In this document: piece by piece, positions 44,149-52,746 of the stretch
Layout of the letters: the number at the start of each line of letters is the position of its first letter
Position numbering within the stretch: the first letter of the stretch is position 1
Source: Escherichia phage Esco_phi_B-01
DNA length: 64,000 nt
Reading direction: 5' to 3' (one strand)
Sequence record: OP292222.1
Notes under the pieces: generated by a model
Seen by the model: the letters and a program-made list of their open reading frames with translations, nothing else
Databases searched by the model: none
Told to the model about the DNA's origin: nothing
Program-made: the position numbers and the translations under genes

Positions 44149-44222
44149 GGCCCTGTAGCTGGACGGTCAAGCGAGCGACTCATAATCGCTGGATGGTGGT
44201 TCGATTCCACCCAGGGCCACCA
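44149..44222 (+). tRNA. tRNA with CAU anticodon (Met or lysidine-modified Ile)
   Basis: Hand-folded cloverleaf: acceptor ggccctg/cagggcc, anticodon stem agcga/tcgct, loop cuCAUaa, T-arm ggtgg-ttcgatt-ccacc, encoded CCA. Confidence 0.8.
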
Positions 44223-44226
44223 ATTT

Positions 44227-44301
44227 GGATGTGTAGCTCAGTGGTAGAGCAGTTGACTGTTAATCAATTGGTCCATGGTTCGAATCCATGCATGTCCGCC
44301 A
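44227..44301 (+). tRNA. tRNA-Asn (GUU)
   Basis: D-arm gctc-agtggta-gagc, anticodon loop cuGUUaa, T-arm catgg-ttcgaat-ccatg, 7-bp acceptor with two G-U pairs, encoded CCA. Confidence 0.8.
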
Positions 44302-44305
44302 AATA

Positions 44306-44381
44306 CGAGGCATAGCTCAGAAGGAAGAGCAACGGTCTTCTAAACCGTAGGTCGTAGGTTCGATCCCTACTGTCTCGACCA
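44306..44381 (+). tRNA. tRNA-Arg (UCU)
   Basis: Anticodon stem acggt/accgt, loop cuUCUaa, T-arm gtagg-ttcgatc-cctac, encoded CCA. Confidence 0.85.
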
Positions 44382-45238: not shown

Positions 45239-45862
45239 ATGAAAACTTACAATGAATTTTTGAACGAAAGCGTTCTGAGTGAAGCCGGCTTGCGCATGAC
45301 TAAAGATATGTGGCAAGCTGCTTATGATAAAATTTCCGGGACTAAAACCACTACCGAGTTCTTTAAAAACGTTTATGATATGTATGGTTTTGATACTAGT
45401 AGCCAGAAAGAATATTACAAAGCTTCCAAAGCTTTTAAAGATATCGTAGCCGGTGGCGCTACTAAGCCTGCTAAACCAGCTAAAGCTCCTGTTGCTAAAC
45501 CTGCAGCCCCAACCAAAGTTGCACCACCTAAACCTGCTGCAGCGCCTAAAGCAGAGCCTGTAAAAGAAGCTCCTAAATCTAAAATCAAGTTTGACACCAC
45601 TACTATTGTTAAAAAATATAACCAGCTGGCTTCTTTGGTTTCTGAAATCGAAACTGAAACTAAACATCTCGTTCGAGAATTCAACGCTCTTCGTAACGGA
45701 CAGCACATTAACAACCTAGATACCCCAGACCTTTATCGCCTCTATCTGACGGTTGAAGGCCTTAAGTATACCCAGCCTATGCATGAAGAAATTGATAACA
45801 AACTTCGTCAAGCCCGCCGCCTTGCAGGTGACGCAGCACAGTTCGAAAAGACTCGTAAATAA
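45239..45862 (+). CDS. Internal-protein-like capsid-targeted protein with Pro/Ala/Lys-rich linker
   Basis: 207 aa; N-terminal MKTYNEFLNES CTS-like; low-complexity PAKPAKAPVAKPAAPTKVAPPKPAAAPKAEP. Confidence 0.6.
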   Translation: MKTYNEFLNESVLSEAGLRMTKDMWQAAYDKISGTKTTTEFFKNVYDMYGFDTSSQKEYYKASKAFKDIVAGGATKPAKPAKAPVAKPAAPTKVAPPKPAAAPKAEPVKEAPKSKIKFDTTTIVKKYNQLASLVSEIETETKHLVREFNALRNGQHINNLDTPDLYRLYLTVEGLKYTQPMHEEIDNKLRQARRLAGDAAQFEKTRK

Positions 45863-45866
45863 TGAA

Positions 45867-45884
45867 AGGAGACTTCGGTCTCCT
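45867..45884 (+). terminator. Hairpin terminator
   Basis: aggagac-ttcg-gtctcct then TTTT. Confidence 0.55.
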
Positions 45885-45921
45885 TTTAGGGGGTTTAGAC
45901 CAAAAATAATTTCACAAAGTT

Positions 45922-45975
45922 GTTTACACCTCCTTTAAACATGATACTATAGACCTATCAAAACAACAGTGTGAA
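45922..45975 (+). promoter_or_regulatory. PeSL-type early promoter
   Basis: GTTTAC, 17 bp, TACTAT, AGACCTATCAAAAC. Confidence 0.55.
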
Positions 45976-45985
45976 GGAGAGTAAA

Positions 45986-46249
45986 ATGGATAATTATGGC
46001 GAATTGTTTAATTTCTTTATGAAATGCGTTCCTGAAGAATTTGGTGCTACTGTTAACGATATTAAGGTTATAGGTGATGACCATCCCATATTTGAAACTT
46101 ACGCAGTAATGGGTAATGATGATGGACAATGGTACACCGTAAAGGTTGTGGTTAATATGTTTGCCGCCGAAGGTTATGTTAAATTGTCTACCAAAGTTTA
46201 CCATGATAACGATTTTGATGCGGAAGATTATTTCAATAATATGAAATAA
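45986..46249 (+). CDS. Hypothetical protein
   Basis: 87 aa from ATG 45986 with AGGAGA RBS. Confidence 0.5.
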   Translation: MDNYGELFNFFMKCVPEEFGATVNDIKVIGDDHPIFETYAVMGNDDGQWYTVKVVVNMFAAEGYVKLSTKVYHDNDFDAEDYFNNMK

Positions 46250-46305
46250 TTGTTACACGGGCTCATGATTGAGATATTATGAGCCTATAATTTGAGGAGA
46301 GCATA

Positions 46306-46704
46306 ATGAATATCGAAGATAAAGAAATGCAAGAGTTGTATAATTCATTAACACCCGAACAACAAAAAGCTGCCAAAGAATTAGAGAAAGCTCTTACTTT
46401 CAGCTTGGCAAAAACTGATTGGGCCGCCATGTATGAAGAAAAAAGGAGATCGGAAATTGAAGCTGCCGAGAGAAATGAATGGATTGTAGAAACCAAGATT
46501 TCTGATGGTGGTTGCTCTGTTGAGGTGTCAGCTGTGGTTAAAGGTACTCATGGTGAAAAATCACTAGGTTGGCATAATGAGGCAAACAAATATATTGTTC
46601 TCTCAACGTCAAAAACTTATGGTCAAAAGGTTCCTGTATCCAAAGCTATTATTAAGCAAGCTCAATGGGAAGCCAATGAAATCTGCCTCGCCAAAATGAA
46701 ATAA
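46306..46704 (+). CDS. Hypothetical protein
   Basis: 132 aa; GAGGAGA RBS. Confidence 0.5.
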   Translation: MNIEDKEMQELYNSLTPEQQKAAKELEKALTFSLAKTDWAAMYEEKRRSEIEAAERNEWIVETKISDGGCSVEVSAVVKGTHGEKSLGWHNEANKYIVLSTSKTYGQKVPVSKAIIKQAQWEANEICLAKMK

Positions 46705-46706
46705 AT

Positions 46707-46750
46707 GTTTACAACCCTCAGAGGACAGGGTATAATGTCCTCATGGATTA
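46707..46750 (+). promoter_or_regulatory. Early promoter (GTTTAC, 18 bp, TATAAT) with flanking inverted repeat
   Basis: Consensus -10 TATAAT at 46731-46736; gaggaca/tgtcctc inverted repeat around it. Confidence 0.5.
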
Positions 46751-46779
46751 CAAAATACCAACCGACTGAAGGAAATACT

Positions 46780-47373
46780 ATGAATACTTTAAAGAAAATT
46801 GTTGAGTTCATCCGTTCTAAACTGGGTACCGCGATGACTCAGAACCTGTCAATCGAAGACCAGTATACTAAAGCTGCTTCTACCCTGATTGATAAAATTA
46901 CCGAACTCCAGACTGCTCATGTTAAGTCTGTGAATGAAGAAAAACGCATTCGTGCATTGGCAAATGAAAAAGACCAACTGGCTGCTTCTAAAGAACGCGA
47001 AATTCGTAAACTGATTGCCGAAGGCGCCGATGTCCAGGTGCATGCTAAACTTGGCCTCCTTTATCGTCGTACAGCCACTCAACTTCGTAAGAAAGCTGAC
47101 GATTATATCGAAATGCGTAATGAAATTAAACTGAAGGTCAAGGAACTTGATGACTCTCGACAGGAACTGGCTGTTAAGCTCGAGTACATCCGTGAAACTC
47201 GTAATATGGCTGCCCTTGGTATTGCTACTGCCGATGATGTGGTTGAAATCGCTGCACTGACTAAGATTGATATTGAAGATACCCTGCTGCGTGTAGAAAC
47301 GTTTAAAGGCCCACAAGTTGGAATGGATACGACTTCTGCCGATATAGACGACTACATTAATTCACTTAAGTAA
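46780..47373 (+). CDS. Coiled-coil protein, weak PspA/IM30-like pattern
   Basis: 197 aa from ATG 46780 (AAGGAA RBS); heptad-rich; similarity to PspA judged by eye only. Confidence 0.45.
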
Positions 47374-47380
47374 TGTTACT

Positions 47381-47398
47381 GGGAGACTTCGGTCTCCC
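47381..47398 (+). terminator. Hairpin terminator
   Basis: gggagac-ttcg-gtctccc. Confidence 0.5.
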
Positions 47399-47421
47399 TA
47401 TTTGGAGGAGAGGAGAATATT

Positions 47422-47964
47422 ATGAGTTTATATGATGACCTGATATCAAATGTCGATTGGTTTAAACATAGTGGTCTTTCCCATGAAACTAATGCAGTTC
47501 TTTATAGAATTCGCCAAGACTTAGGTTATTCCAATGATTTCTTAAGTCGAACAAGCAGACGTGGGCATACTACCAAATTACCTTTTATCTTTGCTTTAGC
47601 TGAAGACCTTTCTTTTGCAGAAGCTTTAGAAATTATTGACGTAAATCTGGGTATTCAACGGGTGGAATTCGCTGGACTACGTTATTCAGTATACTCTTTA
47701 AATGAACCAAGCGATTATAAACAGCTTGTTGATGCTGATGATGATTATCACTTGGTATGCTATTTGATGTTAGAAAACGGTGACCACTTTGGTATGGTAG
47801 ACCGTCGTCCGAGTTATTCGGATATTAAAAATTACGATAAAGATGAGCTTATTATTTTAGCCAACGAATATACATCAGAGAGTCGTAAACAACAACGGAA
47901 GCTTAATCGCTTTATTGCTGAATGCCGTGAATACGCTAAAGAGGTTCAAAATGGAACGGCCTAG
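47422..47964 (+). CDS. Hypothetical protein
   Basis: 180 aa; GGAGGAGAGGAG RBS. Confidence 0.5.
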   Translation: MSLYDDLISNVDWFKHSGLSHETNAVLYRIRQDLGYSNDFLSRTSRRGHTTKLPFIFALAEDLSFAEALEIIDVNLGIQRVEFAGLRYSVYSLNEPSDYKQLVDADDDYHLVCYLMLENGDHFGMVDRRPSYSDIKNYDKDELIILANEYTSESRKQQRKLNRFIAECREYAKEVQNGTA

Positions 47965-48304
47965 TCTTTCATCGCATGTTTATCAATTGGCTGAATATGA
48001 TATTGCTATTTCCTTATTCACGGGAATTGTCACAGGTATGCTCGGCGGTCTGGTTGGTCTGGTAATGACCACAGTTATGGCTGCAATCGAAGGAGTCATG
48101 CCTATTGAGATGGGTTTCTATATGATAATTGCTCCGGCTGTCGTGGCTTATTTTATCCCTCTCGTGTATGATATTTGCCATACAAATGCTTTGAATGCTC
48201 CCATCCGTAAGAGATATGCTTTAGAGATGGCTAATTATAATGAGTATGTAAAACAAACCAAACGTAATGACCTTGAAACCTTTATTAAGGAATGTAAATC
48301 ATGA
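47951..48304 (+). CDS. Small membrane protein
   Basis: 117 aa from ATG 47951; two hydrophobic helices. Confidence 0.45.
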   Translation: MERPSLSSHVYQLAEYDIAISLFTGIVTGMLGGLVGLVMTTVMAAIEGVMPIEMGFYMIIAPAVVAYFIPLVYDICHTNALNAPIRKRYALEMANYNEYVKQTKRNDLETFIKECKS

Positions 48305-48591
48305 ATAAAATTGAAATTGAAATCCCTGAATACAACGACGAGAAATCTGCAGAAAAAGCTATCTATGCTCTTCTGAATAAAGTAGATACCATCGAACATG
48401 AATGTGAAGCTATTGCCGATAAGTACGGTATTCAATTCGGAACAGGTGATTATGGCTCAGGACGTACATACTACCCTGTTGGTTATGAATGCTCCCAGTG
48501 GTTTAAAGATGAAATTGAAAACAATGGTGGTGAAGTTGAAAATGGCGTCGTTACAGTTGGTGCCTGGATTTCCTCTTCAGCAATGTGCTAA
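48301..48591 (+). CDS. Small protein, member 1 of tandem paralog array (C-terminal WISSSAMC)
   Basis: 96 aa; conserved C-terminal tail and gene junction shared with next three ORFs. Confidence 0.55.
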   Translation: MNKIEIEIPEYNDEKSAEKAIYALLNKVDTIEHECEAIADKYGIQFGTGDYGSGRTYYPVGYECSQWFKDEIENNGGEVENGVVTVGAWISSSAMC

Positions 48592-48600
48592 GGAAACGCT

Positions 48601-48882
48601 ATGATGAATGATAACCATAACCACCCAGAGCTTCTGGCCGCAGTAAAAGAAATTCATGAAGCTATTCGTCGTGCCGAGGAAATTGCAGACAAATATGAGA
48701 CTCATTTTAATATATACCCTGCTCGCGGTATGGGCGGTGACTATTATTCTCCTGGTGCCTTGAAAGCTGACCTTGCCCATTGGGAAGAAGATGGTCATCC
48801 TGAATGGGCTATTGTTAATACTCATGACTATACAACTGACCTGGAAAATGGTGGTTGGGTGTCCTCTTCTTCTGAATGTTAA
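48601..48882 (+). CDS. Small protein, member 2 of tandem paralog array (C-terminal WVSSSSEC)
   Basis: 93 aa; same junction TAAGGAAA-N-ATG. Confidence 0.55.
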   Translation: MMNDNHNHPELLAAVKEIHEAIRRAEEIADKYETHFNIYPARGMGGDYYSPGALKADLAHWEEDGHPEWAIVNTHDYTTDLENGGWVSSSSEC

Positions 48883-48891
48883 GGAAATATT

Positions 48892-49089
48892 ATGTCTCGT
48901 GAATTAGATTGTGCAATCCGAACTGCCGCGGCGGCTATTGAAAACGTTATCCAGATTTGCAAAGAAGAACGTGAAGAAGCTGATATCTATATCGATGGTG
49001 TTCGTGACTTAGAACGACATATCACGCTTTATAACGGTTGTATTACTATTAGTGGTACCTCTTGGGTATCATCCTCTTACGAATGCTAA
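48892..49089 (+). CDS. Small protein, member 3 of tandem paralog array (C-terminal WVSSSYEC)
   Basis: 65 aa. Confidence 0.55.
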   Translation: MSRELDCAIRTAAAAIENVIQICKEEREEADIYIDGVRDLERHITLYNGCITISGTSWVSSSYEC

Positions 49090-49099
49090 GGAATAAAAA

Positions 49100-49324
49100 A
49101 TGACTGATATTGATGAATTAGAAAAAGCTGCTCTTGAACTGGCTGCATTGTATAAGAAAGTAAAAGATATGGCTTCTGCTCAAAGTTTTGGTGTTGAGTT
49201 AGACGATTACGATGGTGAAGTTCGTCTTGAAGATTGGCTGAATAGCTCTTGTTACGGCGAAGAAGCTGGCCGAACCTTCGTTGCTCGTCCCGATGGTAAA
49301 ATCTGGTACCCGAGCTCATGCTAA
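49100..49324 (+). CDS. Small protein, member 4 of tandem paralog array (C-terminal WYPSSC)
   Basis: 74 aa. Confidence 0.5.
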   Translation: MTDIDELEKAALELAALYKKVKDMASAQSFGVELDDYDGEVRLEDWLNSSCYGEEAGRTFVARPDGKIWYPSSC

Positions 49325-49545
49325 AATTAAAGAAAAGATACATTCGTAAAATAAACGGTCTTCGTGATTATGCCAAAGGTTGGCCGTTAAGTATTATTAT
49401 GGCTGATAGACACCCACGTTATAATACTGAGATGACCTATTACAAAAAGTATGATTCATATTGTCGGTCTAAAGCAGGTCGTTTAGATGGTTCTTATGAA
49501 GAATACTTTGGTAAAAAACCTACTCGTATTTCGTTAGGAAAATAA
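49318..49545 (+). CDS. Hypothetical basic protein
   Basis: 75 aa; no clear RBS. Confidence 0.35.
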   Translation: MLKLKKRYIRKINGLRDYAKGWPLSIIMADRHPRYNTEMTYYKKYDSYCRSKAGRLDGSYEEYFGKKPTRISLGK

Positions 49546-49575
49546 TTTAGCCACATGGATGTGGTAGGAGGACTT

Positions 49576-49905
49576 ATGCATAAAGATTCAGTATTCAAAT
49601 ACCTTTTGAAAACGGATAAAGAATTCTATATGAATGGGCAAGCTTTCTTGTTCATTCGTGGTAAACGTGAGATGTTTTATAAATGCGACCTCTCAATGCA
49701 TCACCATATGTATCATACCCATGGCGAGTCTATACTAGGGTTCTCTAGTGACGAGACTAGACACATAGCTATGTACTACGACCATTTTAAGCTCAATGAT
49801 TGTGGTGACAACGCTTTGGTCTGGAATCCATCTTGGCGACGTTGGGATATGGTAGACAACGATAAATTATTTTTAGAATATTGTAGAAGTGATGTACAAC
49901 TCTAA
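49576..49905 (+). CDS. Hypothetical protein (His/Cys-rich)
   Basis: 109 aa from ATG 49576 with AGGAGG RBS. Confidence 0.5.
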   Translation: MHKDSVFKYLLKTDKEFYMNGQAFLFIRGKREMFYKCDLSMHHHMYHTHGESILGFSSDETRHIAMYYDHFKLNDCGDNALVWNPSWRRWDMVDNDKLFLEYCRSDVQL

Positions 49906-49948
49906 AAACTTGTGTTACTATTACCCTACACAAACATGAGGAGAACAT

Positions 49949-50188
49949 ATGTGGTATTACTCTCCGCTGTCTGATAAGTCTGATGAGCCGGTACGAATTA
50001 GTCGTGCTAAGTTTAAAAAGATTTATGGCTTTGCCTATAAGAAGTCTGATTATGGTGTTCGTTTTGAAGATGCCCACTGTATCAATGACCCTTATGCGGA
50101 AGAAATCTCTAATGAGATAATTCCTATCGTTAAGAATAATTCTGATGATATGTGGGAATTGCATAACGATTACGTTGCTGAAATTTAA
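49949..50188 (+). CDS. Hypothetical protein
   Basis: 79 aa; GAGGAGA RBS. Confidence 0.5.
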   Translation: MWYYSPLSDKSDEPVRISRAKFKKIYGFAYKKSDYGVRFEDAHCINDPYAEEISNEIIPIVKNNSDDMWELHNDYVAEI

Positions 50189-50207
50189 GTTTACTGAGGA
50201 AAATATT

Positions 50208-51167
50208 ATGATGCTAGTTATTGGTTCTCGTGCACTGCACCACGCCGGTCTGATTGAAAGTAAGTATATCGAAAATTCTGATTGGGATTTTATTGCCGAC
50301 CAAGGCTCATGGAATCACTTTAAAGCCCGGATGTTCGGCGCTCATGTGCACGTAGACAACCCAGACGTCCAGGCTTTTAAATGCATGCACAACGGTAAAG
50401 AAACCTATTTTGAAGCTTATATCGTCCGCGCCTTGACTAACGTACGTGAAATTACCGGCGAGCTTCAGGACGAAGATTTAACCTCAAGTTATCGACTCCT
50501 GAAATACGCCGAAAATCATATTAAAAAGGATCGTCTTACAGGTTTCTATTGGGCAACGCCTGATATCTGTCTGGCTATCAAAATGAGCCATCGTTATTTG
50601 AAGAACCACCCTTTCTTTTTGAAGACGATGTCCCACATCAAATATCTTCGTAATAAAGGTGTAACCTTGAATGAAGAGCTCCAAGAAATCATGCTGCAAC
50701 GCCAGAAAGAAACGTTGAGCTATTCTCATCCTAAATTGGATGTAAACAAATCATCATTCTTTAATGATACCATTTATACATTAGACCATGACTCCATCCA
50801 CGAAGCTGTGGCATTGGCTGGACGCCCTGCATATACCTTTTATATGAAAGATGGTTCTGAAGTCATGACCTCACGTGAGAAGTTTGAAGCTTTGCCTGAA
50901 GCTATTAAACTGGCTGGCGTATATGAAGAAACTTGTGTGTTGGCCCTAGAACGTTCACAGGTTCCTAACGACTTTAATATTTCACCATCATTAAGTTTCT
51001 ATATGGCTCTTGAGAAAGTGTGTACCTCAATCACTTCAGGCTGGTTCCGCACTTATGCCTGGGAAAACTACCAAGCTGTAGTGAATATGTATAAGACGCT
51101 AGGTGAAAATGACTACATCAAGCGGTTCCAAGATAACCAACATTTAATTCGTCCTTTCACAAAATAA
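50208..51167 (+). CDS. Putative nucleotidyltransferase-fold protein
   Basis: 319 aa from ATG 50208 (GAGGAAA RBS); N-terminal IGSRALHHAGL...SDWDF resembles GS...DxD motif, with atypical spacing. Confidence 0.5.
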   Translation: MMLVIGSRALHHAGLIESKYIENSDWDFIADQGSWNHFKARMFGAHVHVDNPDVQAFKCMHNGKETYFEAYIVRALTNVREITGELQDEDLTSSYRLLKYAENHIKKDRLTGFYWATPDICLAIKMSHRYLKNHPFFLKTMSHIKYLRNKGVTLNEELQEIMLQRQKETLSYSHPKLDVNKSSFFNDTIYTLDHDSIHEAVALAGRPAYTFYMKDGSEVMTSREKFEALPEAIKLAGVYEETCVLALERSQVPNDFNISPSLSFYMALEKVCTSITSGWFRTYAWENYQAVVNMYKTLGENDYIKRFQDNQHLIRPFTK

Positions 51168-51179
51168 TTGCATAAAACA

Positions 51180-51235
51180 GTATACAAGGTCTATAGGTGT
51201 GATACTATAGACCTATCAAAACAACAGAGTGAAAT
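51180..51235 (+). promoter_or_regulatory. PeSL-type early promoter (degenerate -35 GTATAC)
   Basis: GTATAC, 17 bp, TACTAT, AGACCTATCAAAAC; palindrome ggtctatag/ctatagacc. Confidence 0.45.
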
Positions 51236-51245
51236 GGAGAATAAA

Positions 51246-51458
51246 ATGAAACTTTCTAACCAAGCAATCAACATGTTAAACGAAGTTCGTGCAGCTGGTG
51301 CTAAATGCCTGATGGTTAACACTCGTGACGGTGACCTTCGTCAAGCATTTGGTGAATTGAAATCTGCTGACCTGGTTAAATGTTCAGTTGGTATCGGTAA
51401 CGCACTTCGTGTATCTTTATCCCCTAAAGGTAAAATGTACTTTTTCAACAAAAAGTAA
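51246..51458 (+). CDS. Hypothetical protein
   Basis: 70 aa from ATG 51246 with GGAGA RBS. Confidence 0.5.
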   Translation: MKLSNQAINMLNEVRAAGAKCLMVNTRDGDLRQAFGELKSADLVKCSVGIGNALRVSLSPKGKMYFFNKK

Positions 51459-51472
51459 TTGAGGAAAATATT

Positions 51473-52159
51473 ATGAACAGCCCGAAAACTTTTAATTCTC
51501 AAGCTCGTGCAGTAGGTAGTTTTGCCGGTAAAATTTCTAACGATAAAATCAAAAACGAAACTATGTTCTTCAACAGCTCGTTGGCTTTCGCTTTTGATAA
51601 TGGTGGCCCTATTACTCGCAGCTTCATCATGAACCTGCCGGATGATTGGAACACTGACCAGGTTGTATTTGATTCTCGAGTTCATATGCTTATGCCTGGT
51701 TGGTATCCTGCTATCCCAGGTTATCATCATGATGATGTACCACGTCCGGATATTCCGGTTGGTCAACACTTTATTACTGCAGGGCAACCTGATTATGATA
51801 ATCCTCGATACCATTCTGAACATATTCTTGGTCTTGTTAACGCTGATGTGTGTCCTACTTATTTTGCAACCGGAACTGCACAATTTAGCCAGATTCCTGA
51901 TGGCGAACTTATCTATCGCCGGTGGCATAAAGAAGTTCTGGAAAAAATCGAGTCCAATGAATTAACCAAGTGGGATGCTCCTGACCGCACATTGCTCCAG
52001 TTTGATTGGCAGACATGGCATACAGGTTCTCGTGCAGTAAGTAATGGCTGGCGCTGGTTTGGTCGTGTGTCTCGTAATACCGACCGTGTTAAAAAGATTA
52101 CAAATGAAATCCGCGTTAATGCTCAAGTATATCTGGAATTCCCTATGGAGGGCTGGTAA
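51473..52159 (+). CDS. Hypothetical protein
   Basis: 228 aa; GAGGAAA RBS; His/Asp-rich central region. Confidence 0.5.
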   Translation: MNSPKTFNSQARAVGSFAGKISNDKIKNETMFFNSSLAFAFDNGGPITRSFIMNLPDDWNTDQVVFDSRVHMLMPGWYPAIPGYHHDDVPRPDIPVGQHFITAGQPDYDNPRYHSEHILGLVNADVCPTYFATGTAQFSQIPDGELIYRRWHKEVLEKIESNELTKWDAPDRTLLQFDWQTWHTGSRAVSNGWRWFGRVSRNTDRVKKITNEIRVNAQVYLEFPMEGW

Positions 52160-52746
52160 TGGCCCTTTATGAACCTGGTTGCATGGGTGTTGATGTAAAC
52201 TTCATCCGTCGGTCAGAAAATGCCGGAATCATTATCCCAAGTGGTGAACATATGATTATTAAAAAGTCCTGGCGAAATATTGATGATGGGGATGAAGGAA
52301 TTTCAGCCAGTACAATAGATTGGTCGGGTTGTACTGCTGAAATGAAACAACTTTTAATTGAGGAATATAAAATGGGCTATATCGTAAATGGTTGGCAACC
52401 GGAACCCCATAAAGAACAGACACCAGACCCATTGATTTGTTATAGCAAAAAATACGGCTTTCGTACATGGAGTGATGAATACGACAAATTAGTGAGTTCT
52501 AGGTTCTATGTTTGGATGGGTATATTATTTTTCCCACTCCTAGGGTTTTTCCTGACAACAGATAATGACTTACCCATTAGTGTATTCGCTTCAGCGATGT
52601 CTGCAGCTATCTTAGGACTTATCGCATCATTTTTATGGACTGCAGTTATTGAAGTACCTTTTCGTATTTCTAAAGTTAAAAAGGTATATGACGATATCAC
52701 TAAGAAAAATACATTAAACTCTTTTATTGAGGAATGCCGTAAATGA
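52159..52746 (+). CDS. Hypothetical protein with C-terminal TM helices
   Basis: 195 aa; GGAGGG RBS. Confidence 0.5.
   Translation: MALYEPGCMGVDVNFIRRSENAGIIIPSGEHMIIKKSWRNIDDGDEGISASTIDWSGCTAEMKQLLIEEYKMGYIVNGWQPEPHKEQTPDPLICYSKKYGFRTWSDEYDKLVSSRFYVWMGILFFPLLGFFLTTDNDLPISVFASAMSAAILGLIASFLWTAVIEVPFRISKVKKVYDDITKKNTLNSFIEECRK

Follow-up and report, generated by a model that had tools for sequence, protein, structure and literature searches.

Small proteins encoded beside nucleotidyltransferases have been described in several bacterial systems. MenA1, a protein of 68 amino acids (aa) encoded 5' of MenT1, blocks MenT1 and induces auto-phosphorylation (PMC10435456, PMC11375011), and the AbiEii/MenT (DUF1814) enzymes are defined by motifs I-IV, including an x15 spacer and a motif II Arg (PMC3985639). 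A precedent for covalent modification of the partner comes from the minimal nucleotidyltransferase MntA, which polyadenylylates HepT (PMC7641770). Here, we describe an array of four small open reading frames (ORF1-ORF4) in a 64,000-nucleotide stretch of DNA from Escherichia phage Esco_phi_B-01 (record OP292222.1; this whole stretch is referred to as the window, and positions are those of the window unless another record or locus is named). The four encoded proteins share a C-terminal tail with Trp, two Ser and a terminal Cys, and the family to which they belong forms a near-obligate, two-way syntenic pair with the gene of a predicted enzyme composed of DUF7277 and DUF7275.

This pairing brings together, as one module, two sets of "hypothetical proteins" from the variable early regions of T4-like and other large phages. 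Both sets are widespread, with the enzyme gene represented in 733 phage records across many host genera and the small family in 279 clusters (50% identity, E-value <= 1e-3 in an exhaustive profile search), and neither has a described function, a solved structure or any Pfam annotation other than "DUF". No paper was found on the small family, its PHROG numbers, DUF7275 or DUF7277; as far as our searches show, the small proteins are catalogued but undescribed, and their pairing with the enzyme is apparently unreported.

Four small proteins with a common C-terminal tail

ORF1-ORF4 are tightly packed on the plus strand (48301-49324) and encode proteins of 96, 93, 65 and 74 aa; recomputed from the window, their number, coordinates, lengths and tails agree with the first-pass annotation of this DNA. 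ORF1 (48301-48591; phrog_899, E 2.1e-23) belongs to a "GDYGSGRTYYP" subtype and ends in WISSSAMC, ORF2 (48601-48882; phrog_899, E 3.4e-19) belongs to a "YPARGMGGDYY" subtype and ends in WVSSSSEC with the final residue as its sole Cys, and ORF3 (48892-49089; phrog_4882, E 2.4e-36) is of a short subtype that is without the Gly-rich loop and ends in WVSSSYEC. ORF4 (49100-49324; phrog_899, E 2.6e-9) represents a double-motif subtype (EDWLNSSC-YGE...KIWYPSSC), in which the tail WYPSSC is accompanied by an internal copy of the motif, EDWLNSSCYGE, that the first-pass annotation had not recorded. This subtype, a duplication of the hairpin-plus-tail unit, is also present in phAPEC8 (locus L087, 3413-3631), Aeromonas phages and others.

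The family is catalogued as PHROG 899 and PHROG 4882, both without an assigned function. From our alignments, we define the tail as W-x(1,2)-S-S-x(0,3)-C at the very end of the protein, so that the chain closes with Cys, a pattern that all four ORFs satisfy. In a 35-sequence family alignment, W89, S92, S93 and the terminal C96 (ORF1 numbering) are invariant; from the N-terminus onward, the sequences show a helix with A..IAD and a Gly/Tyr-rich loop (GDYGSGRTYYP or AYGMGGTYYP), followed in the C-terminal half by an acidic variable stretch and the final G-x-W-[VIL]-S-S-S-x-x-C. Members of the 279 clusters are nearly all 65-120 aa long with matches that extend to the last residue, 173 of 182 matches to the family's hidden Markov model (HMM) end in Cys, and relatives of ORF1 were found in 379 phage records by tblastn. 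None of 57 family members matched Pfam, and sequence searches gave no significant NCBIfam or PDB match for the small proteins.

The first-pass annotation had proposed an alignment with profile searches and a motif search in other phages, both of which turned out in favor of the tail: the four ORFs match family profiles, and homologs that carry the same tail, whose absence would have pointed to a chance motif, are found widely. A chance origin was ruled out, since, of the window's 113 plus-strand ORFs with 60 aa or more, ORF1-ORF4 are the only ones with a C-terminal Cys, and the four tail residues are invariant.

Structure prediction, also proposed at the outset, gave a confident AlphaFold model for ORF1 (predicted local distance difference test, pLDDT, 92) with a helix at residues 14-42, a small beta-sheet and a short terminal helix; the last block is modelled at pLDDT 79 versus 90-97 elsewhere, and the model has no counterpart among solved structures. 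All four proteins are acidic (isoelectric point, pI, 4.3-4.7; 4.26 for ORF1), and no signal peptide or membrane segment was seen on reading their sequences. The bodies of the paralogs are only 24-27% identical in pairwise comparison, as expected from their earlier description as otherwise divergent. However, ORF1, ORF2 and ORF4 match a single profile, phrog_899, and the bodies are diverged homologs with helix, hairpins and tail rather than unrelated proteins to which a tag has been attached. The subtypes are ancient and have diverged from one another, each of them is kept across genera, and the tail is the one feature common to subfamilies with differing bodies.

Comparison with Dhakavirus orthologs gave ratios of nonsynonymous to synonymous substitution (dN/dS) of 0.02-0.18 for ORF1, 0.04-0.47 for ORF2, 0-0.10 for ORF3 and 0-0.15 for ORF4, and from these values (0.02-0.47 as the range given for all four) it follows that ORF1-ORF4 are coding and constrained, i.e., under purifying selection. 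The Ser codons of the tails vary among the paralogs (TCC/TCT/TCA/AGC), which together with the dN/dS values argues that the tail is a genuine signature selected at the protein level.

An explanation at the DNA level had been raised by the first-pass annotation, which described a junction shared by the first three ORFs and suggested ongoing gene conversion; similarity could be maintained by conversion between cassettes or by the constraint of the next gene's ribosome-binding site. The repeated junction is real: TAA-GGAA-N5-6-ATG follows ORF1, ORF2 and ORF3, first as TAA + GGAAACGCT + ATG at 48589 to 48603 on the plus strand, where the stop overlaps the Shine-Dalgarno sequence of ORF2, and in equivalent form at 48880-48894 and 49087-49102. 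Its supposed upstream part, "gaatg[ct]", did not stand for all three, as it precedes the junction after ORF2 and ORF3 only and is replaced by "caatgtgc" in ORF1. We read TAAGGAA as a stop codon merged with the Shine-Dalgarno sequence of the next gene; each ORF of the array has a Shine-Dalgarno sequence, which overlaps the preceding stop for ORF2, ORF3 and ORF4, and the plus strand of the window has 10 instances of TAAGGA followed by ATG.

Cassette loss in sister phages also has its break points at these junctions. Phage JS98 has five cassettes, of which the fifth, an unannotated 69-aa member ending in ...GFWFSSSMSC between the counterparts of ORF3 and ORF4 (L001 10700-10909 = NC_010105 65283-65492, complement), is missing from the window, and ORF3 is missing from the IMG/VR genome L007. 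Both deletions join within the repeated TG[CT]-TAA-GG[AT]AAT...ATGACT junction, and the junctions matter for cassette gain and loss. As the force that maintains the motif, gene conversion fails because the Ser codons of the paralogous tails differ, with synonymous tail sites unlike one another and bodies less than 30% identical. Moreover, ORF4 uses AGC and has no Shine-Dalgarno sequence 3' of its tail, and the amino-acid motif is kept in distant phages with unrelated downstream DNA. DNA-level conservation was rejected as the main cause, for which we give it almost no chance, and it survives only as an account of how cassettes come and go.

Pairing with a DUF7277 and DUF7275 gene

The starting clue was that three distant metagenomic members of the small family were each one small gene 5' of a ~300-aa protein with DUF7277 and DUF7275. 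In a forward test, 80 IMG/VR loci were retrieved via an alignment of the enzyme; family members detected by HMM were present in 70 of them, all on the enzyme strand and nearly all 5', and with tail-motif ORFs added, 75 of the 80 loci carry 1-6 copies just 5' on the same strand, with a median gap to the enzyme start of 308 bp. In a reverse test, 52 loci were retrieved with the peptide pattern YGMGG[TSR]Yx[PGS], taken from a sub-family alignment, and in 49 of these DUF7275 follows 217-1886 bp downstream in the same orientation; of the three loci without it, two are contig ends. Metagenome look-ups placed the enzyme gene downstream of the small family on its strand in seven of seven cases. ORFs that carry the tail without matching the family HMM follow the same distribution, with 90 found within 3.5 kb 5' of the partner gene and six in other parts of these loci.

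The IMG/VR loci lack phylogenetic independence, and the forward and reverse sets share some contigs; the sole correction is a grouping by lineage, for which the plus-strand ORFs of 84 loci were clustered and 30 lineages with less than 60% enzyme identity between them were distinguished. The small family is present in 25 of the 30 lineages, with any other gene cluster confined to one to four. Phage groups unrelated to one another carry the module (Straboviridae, Phapecoctavirus, and Pseudomonas and Acinetobacter phages), examples outside the T4-like phages being phAPEC8, with three members of which one is double-motif, Pseudomonas phage SYP and Acinetobacter phage AM101. The small family and the enzyme gene are a near-obligate two-way syntenic pair, and the module they form has two parts that are co-oriented, tightly packed and often translationally coupled. 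Judging from this conserved arrangement, the link is probably functional, with the two parts working together.

In the window, the enzyme gene (50208-51167, plus strand; phrog_2141) encodes 319 aa with DUF7277 at residues 2-101 (E 3.5e-27) and DUF7275 at residues 120-305 (E 2.8e-78). The mechanically called ORF begins at 50145 (340 aa), and the start at 50208, preceded by GAGGAAAATATT, is favored by the family alignment and by the JS98 annotation. The DUF7277 part is nucleotidyltransferase-like, and the depositors of four phage records name the homolog a "(putative) nucleotidyltransferase". Among 44 homologs, G6, S7, D25 and D27 are invariant (V-I-G6-S7, D25-W-D27-F) and position 69 is acidic in 41 (Glu in 37, Asp in four), residues that match the polymerase-beta-type nucleotidyltransferase signature hG[GS]...DhD...[DE]; further invariant residues are K125, H128, K139, T140, H194, D195 and H198.

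Several of these features recall AbiEii. The spacer from G-S to D-x-D measures 10-19 residues with modes of 15 and 17, 21 of 43 homologs place an Arg four positions ahead of the first Asp, where the window protein carries Ile, and the block K125-[ML]-S-H128-R129-[YF]-x-[KR]132 resembles AbiEii motif III (KLxAaxxR). K139-T140-M-x-D143 agrees with motif IV, +DxxD, at the first and last positions only. None of the 44 homologs matched Pfam AbiEii at E <= 1, and the weak matches concern single members (PADLOC AbiEii, 1/44, E 0.0029; Pfam DUF6036, one, E 0.053). The H...HD residues of DUF7275 were also considered as an HD-type phosphohydrolase, a reading that was dropped as 0/44 homologs match the Pfam HD domain. 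The enzyme probably works like the AbiEii/MenT-type nucleotidyltransferases, to judge from its conserved residues, with membership in DUF1814 not established.

Short forms of the enzyme in Gordonia, Streptomyces, Vibrio and Alteromonas phages (L147 2429-3223; L090 3851-4597; L149 2656-3417; L148 2812-3963) keep G-S...D-x-D and the C-terminal domain and are missing profile positions ~30-95. No tail-bearing ORF lies within 3-4 kb of these genes, and the missing segment may be the one that engages the small proteins.

Possible roles of the tail

In the arrangement that we propose, the array would supply 1-6 small, acidic, cytoplasmic proteins, each with an N-terminal helix, one or two beta-hairpins and the tail, and the single ~300-aa protein encoded just 3' on the same strand would act on them through its putative AbiEii/MenT-like catalytic layout. 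The tail would be the site where the enzyme engages the small proteins, such that one enzyme could serve several diverged clients; it would most likely transfer a nucleotidyl or phosphoryl group to the tail Ser or Cys, and the modification would switch the clients on or off in early or middle infection. We assign a probability of roughly 0.4 to this proposal, in which a single enzyme acts on several clients by way of an acceptor tag that they share. Given the near-obligate link to a single enzyme gene, the "shared processing or modification signal" of the first-pass annotation is a reasonable suggestion, and a common acceptor tag is favored because the tail offers small nucleophiles at an end of the protein for which the model is less confident. 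The fully specified form, in which phages encode the tail as an acceptor tag, with the DUF7277/DUF7275 protein as a writer that covalently modifies the Ser or Cys of several effectors, is tentative. If the enzyme does modify the tail, the module would be a new phage protein modification system and a compact, usable tag-and-enzyme pair. In an extreme version, which we hold to be highly improbable, nucleotidylylation would activate a tail Ser for elimination and the Cys would close a lanthionine-like ring on a folded protein.

Several observations weigh against an enzyme that modifies the tails. Synteny gives a link and not a direction, and the small proteins could regulate the enzyme instead. 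Three unrelated small ORFs stand between the array and the enzyme gene in the window, and Enterobacter phage CC31 (L029) keeps the enzyme with no small-family member detected within 6 kb 5', although its close relatives L028, L030 and L035 have one. The distance from Ser-Ser to Cys varies from 0 to 3 residues, which makes a single fixed acceptor geometry not obvious. For the enzyme itself, no PDB (phmmer and profile searches; no MenT chain), Pfam or NCBIfam match was obtained beyond the two DUFs, and its single-sequence AlphaFold model (pLDDT 34.5) is unusable for the fold.

In the main alternative, possible if somewhat unlikely, the small proteins are antitoxin-like regulators or inhibitors that would use their helix and tail to plug the active site of the enzyme or alter its shape, and the enzyme would itself act on another target, e.g., tRNA 3' ends. 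The gene order, with a small protein 5' of an AbiEii/MenT-like ~300-aa enzyme, fits this alternative, as do the weak AbiEii and nucleotidyltransferase profile matches of single members and the long predicted N-terminal helix, a feature shared with MenA1 (PMC10435456; PMC11375011). Furthermore, 27 of 84 loci and 9 of 30 lineages have tRNA genes no more than 6 kb away from the enzyme gene; taken without a background estimate, these counts are a mild hint of a tRNA-related target. However, one inhibitor would suffice, whereas two to six deeply diverged subtypes are kept side by side across genera. The small family shows no detected similarity to any known antitoxin family, and the assignment of the enzyme to DUF1814 is not established (Pfam AbiEii, 0/44). 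Because the diverged subtypes are retained together across genera, we favor several clients of one enzyme over redundant inhibitors. If the small proteins do regulate an AbiEii/MenT-like enzyme, virulent phages would carry toxin-antitoxin-like nucleotidyltransferase modules, with a bearing on host shut-off and counter-defence.

The composition of the tail also invites an explanation that is independent of modification, namely an intrinsic metal-binding, redox or oligomerisation motif next to an enzyme that is a pathway neighbour without direct contact; in the metal variant, the terminal thiolates of two or four subunits would share one metal ion. The invariant terminal Cys with Ser and Trp nearby is consistent with this, ORF2 is without any other Cys, and the double-motif subtype could mimic a dimer by placing two tails in one chain. 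Nevertheless, the variable Ser-to-Cys spacing and the single conserved thiol per tail are poorly suited to a defined metal site, and the near-absence of the family from loci that lack the enzyme gene would be left unexplained. We regard this explanation as unlikely.

A conserved terminal motif on diverged bodies could, finally, be read by the machinery of the host or the virion as a tag for degradation or a signal for export or packaging, in the sense of the targeting signal suggested by the first-pass annotation, and the internal proteins of phage T4 provide a precedent for a shared targeting tag. However, the capsid-targeting tag of T4 sits at the N-terminus, where the prohead protease cuts it, and we know of no terminal signal that the tail matches. 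The acidity of the small proteins and their lack of a recognizable signal peptide or membrane segment argue in the same direction. Since motif and phage-encoded enzyme are kept together across phages of very different hosts, a phage-borne reader is favored over a host one, and a role as a host or virion signal appears very unlikely. Modification of several tail-bearing clients by the phage enzyme is still the explanation that we prefer.

Genomic setting and comparison with known systems

Positions 47400-50200 of the window are Dhakavirus-like, with a match of 95.5% to MN04 and 94.9% to JS98, and we assign the source phage to Dhakavirus on this sequence identity. In JS98, the equivalent of the array occupies a variable stretch between e.6 and e.2, 3' of the tRNA cluster, and the counterparts of ORF1-ORF4 are annotated as the hypothetical proteins orf129, orf128, orf127 and orf126. 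The T4 genes at the corresponding place, e.2-e.5, differ; the products of e.3 and e.4, which take the position of the membrane-protein gene 5' of the array, are small and apparently hydrophobic, judged by reading their sequences. No member of either family was found in T4, neither in the syntenic e.2-e.8 region nor in positions 1-50000 and 62000-76000 (64 kb), and for these 64 kb the idea of a T4 gene family was rejected. In the JS98 annotation, homologs of T4 57B and vs.4 flank the variable region (L001 2898-3353 and 19092-19370); these would be the anti-CBASS (cyclic oligonucleotide-based antiphage signaling system) proteins Acb1 and Acb2.

Directly 5' of the array lies a gene for a predicted 117-aa membrane protein (47951-48304; phrog_2330), whose stop overlaps the start of ORF1 (ATGA). 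A candidate middle promoter resembling a MotA box, TATGCTTTA-N12-TATAAT at 48215 to 48241 on the plus strand, is located inside this gene ~60 nucleotides 5' of ORF1 and is a pattern match only. A strong match to an early-type sigma-70 promoter, TTTACA-17-TATAAT (46708-46736), precedes the e.6 homolog, and no plus-strand terminators were predicted in 45500-52500. The genes of tRNA-Met, tRNA-Asn and tRNA-Arg are at 44149-44381, 3.9 kb 5' of ORF1. In Gordonia phage OneUp, 0.9 kb separates the enzyme gene from a tRNA cluster.

Between the array and the enzyme gene, the plus strand carries three small ORFs between 49318 and 50188 (phrog_7065, 9796 and 3723), i.e., a 75-aa ORF at 49318-49545, a second at 49555/49576-49905 and a 79-aa ORF at 49949-50188. 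The tail is absent from all three, and they are found in few lineages only. A 228-aa ORF 3' of the enzyme gene (51473-52159; phrog_1843) has a His/Asp-rich stretch, PGYHHDDVPRPD, no Pfam match, and is confined to one lineage in the ORF clustering. Across the 14 ORFs of the window between 47422 and 52976, Pfam scans returned only DUF7277 and DUF7275 above threshold.

Among the described systems, MenAT1/AbiE is similar to the module in having a small-protein gene directly 5' of a gene for a ~300-aa enzyme on the same strand. The predicted enzyme resembles AbiEii in its hG[GS], the long spacer (modes 15 and 17), DhD, the Arg in 21/43 homologs and the motif III-like Lys block (PMC3985639), and the small partner resembles MenA1 in its predicted long N-terminal helix (PMC10435456). 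In contrast to MenAT1 and AbiE, the module resides in virulent phage genomes and not in bacterial toxin-antitoxin loci, it has an array of 1-6 diverged paralogs where MenA1 is single copy, and its small proteins have a terminal W-S-S-C tail that none of the described antitoxins has. The enzyme differs from AbiE in its profile matches (Pfam AbiEii, 0/44; PADLOC AbiEii, 1/44, weakly) and in a motif IV that is not strict, and the window protein is without the motif II Arg.

The type VII HEPN/MNT systems likewise combine a gene for a minimal polymerase-beta-type nucleotidyltransferase with a small partner, which in that case is covalently modified (PMC7641770), a mechanism of the kind that we favor for the module. 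No sequence relationship between these systems and the module was detected. Unlike HepT, the small proteins are without a HEPN domain or R-x4-6-H motif, the candidate acceptor would be the tail Ser or Cys, and each enzyme has several partners.

A third likeness is to the precursor arrays of ribosomally synthesized and post-translationally modified peptides (RiPPs) and to the T4 internal proteins, in which tandem paralogs have one short conserved terminal element in common, differ elsewhere and lie next to a single candidate processing enzyme. The S-x-x-C end of ORF1-ORF3 has the spacing of the aminovinyl-cysteine rings in epidermin-type peptides. No LanB, LanM or LanD-type domains were found in the Pfam scans of the 14 window ORFs, and the gene tables of seven related metagenome loci contain no lanthipeptide-type domains. 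Unlike RiPP precursors, the small proteins fold confidently as domains, as predicted for ORF1, and whereas lanthipeptide precursors have a conserved leader with a variable core, here it is the terminal tail, the putative modified end, that is most conserved and the body that varies.

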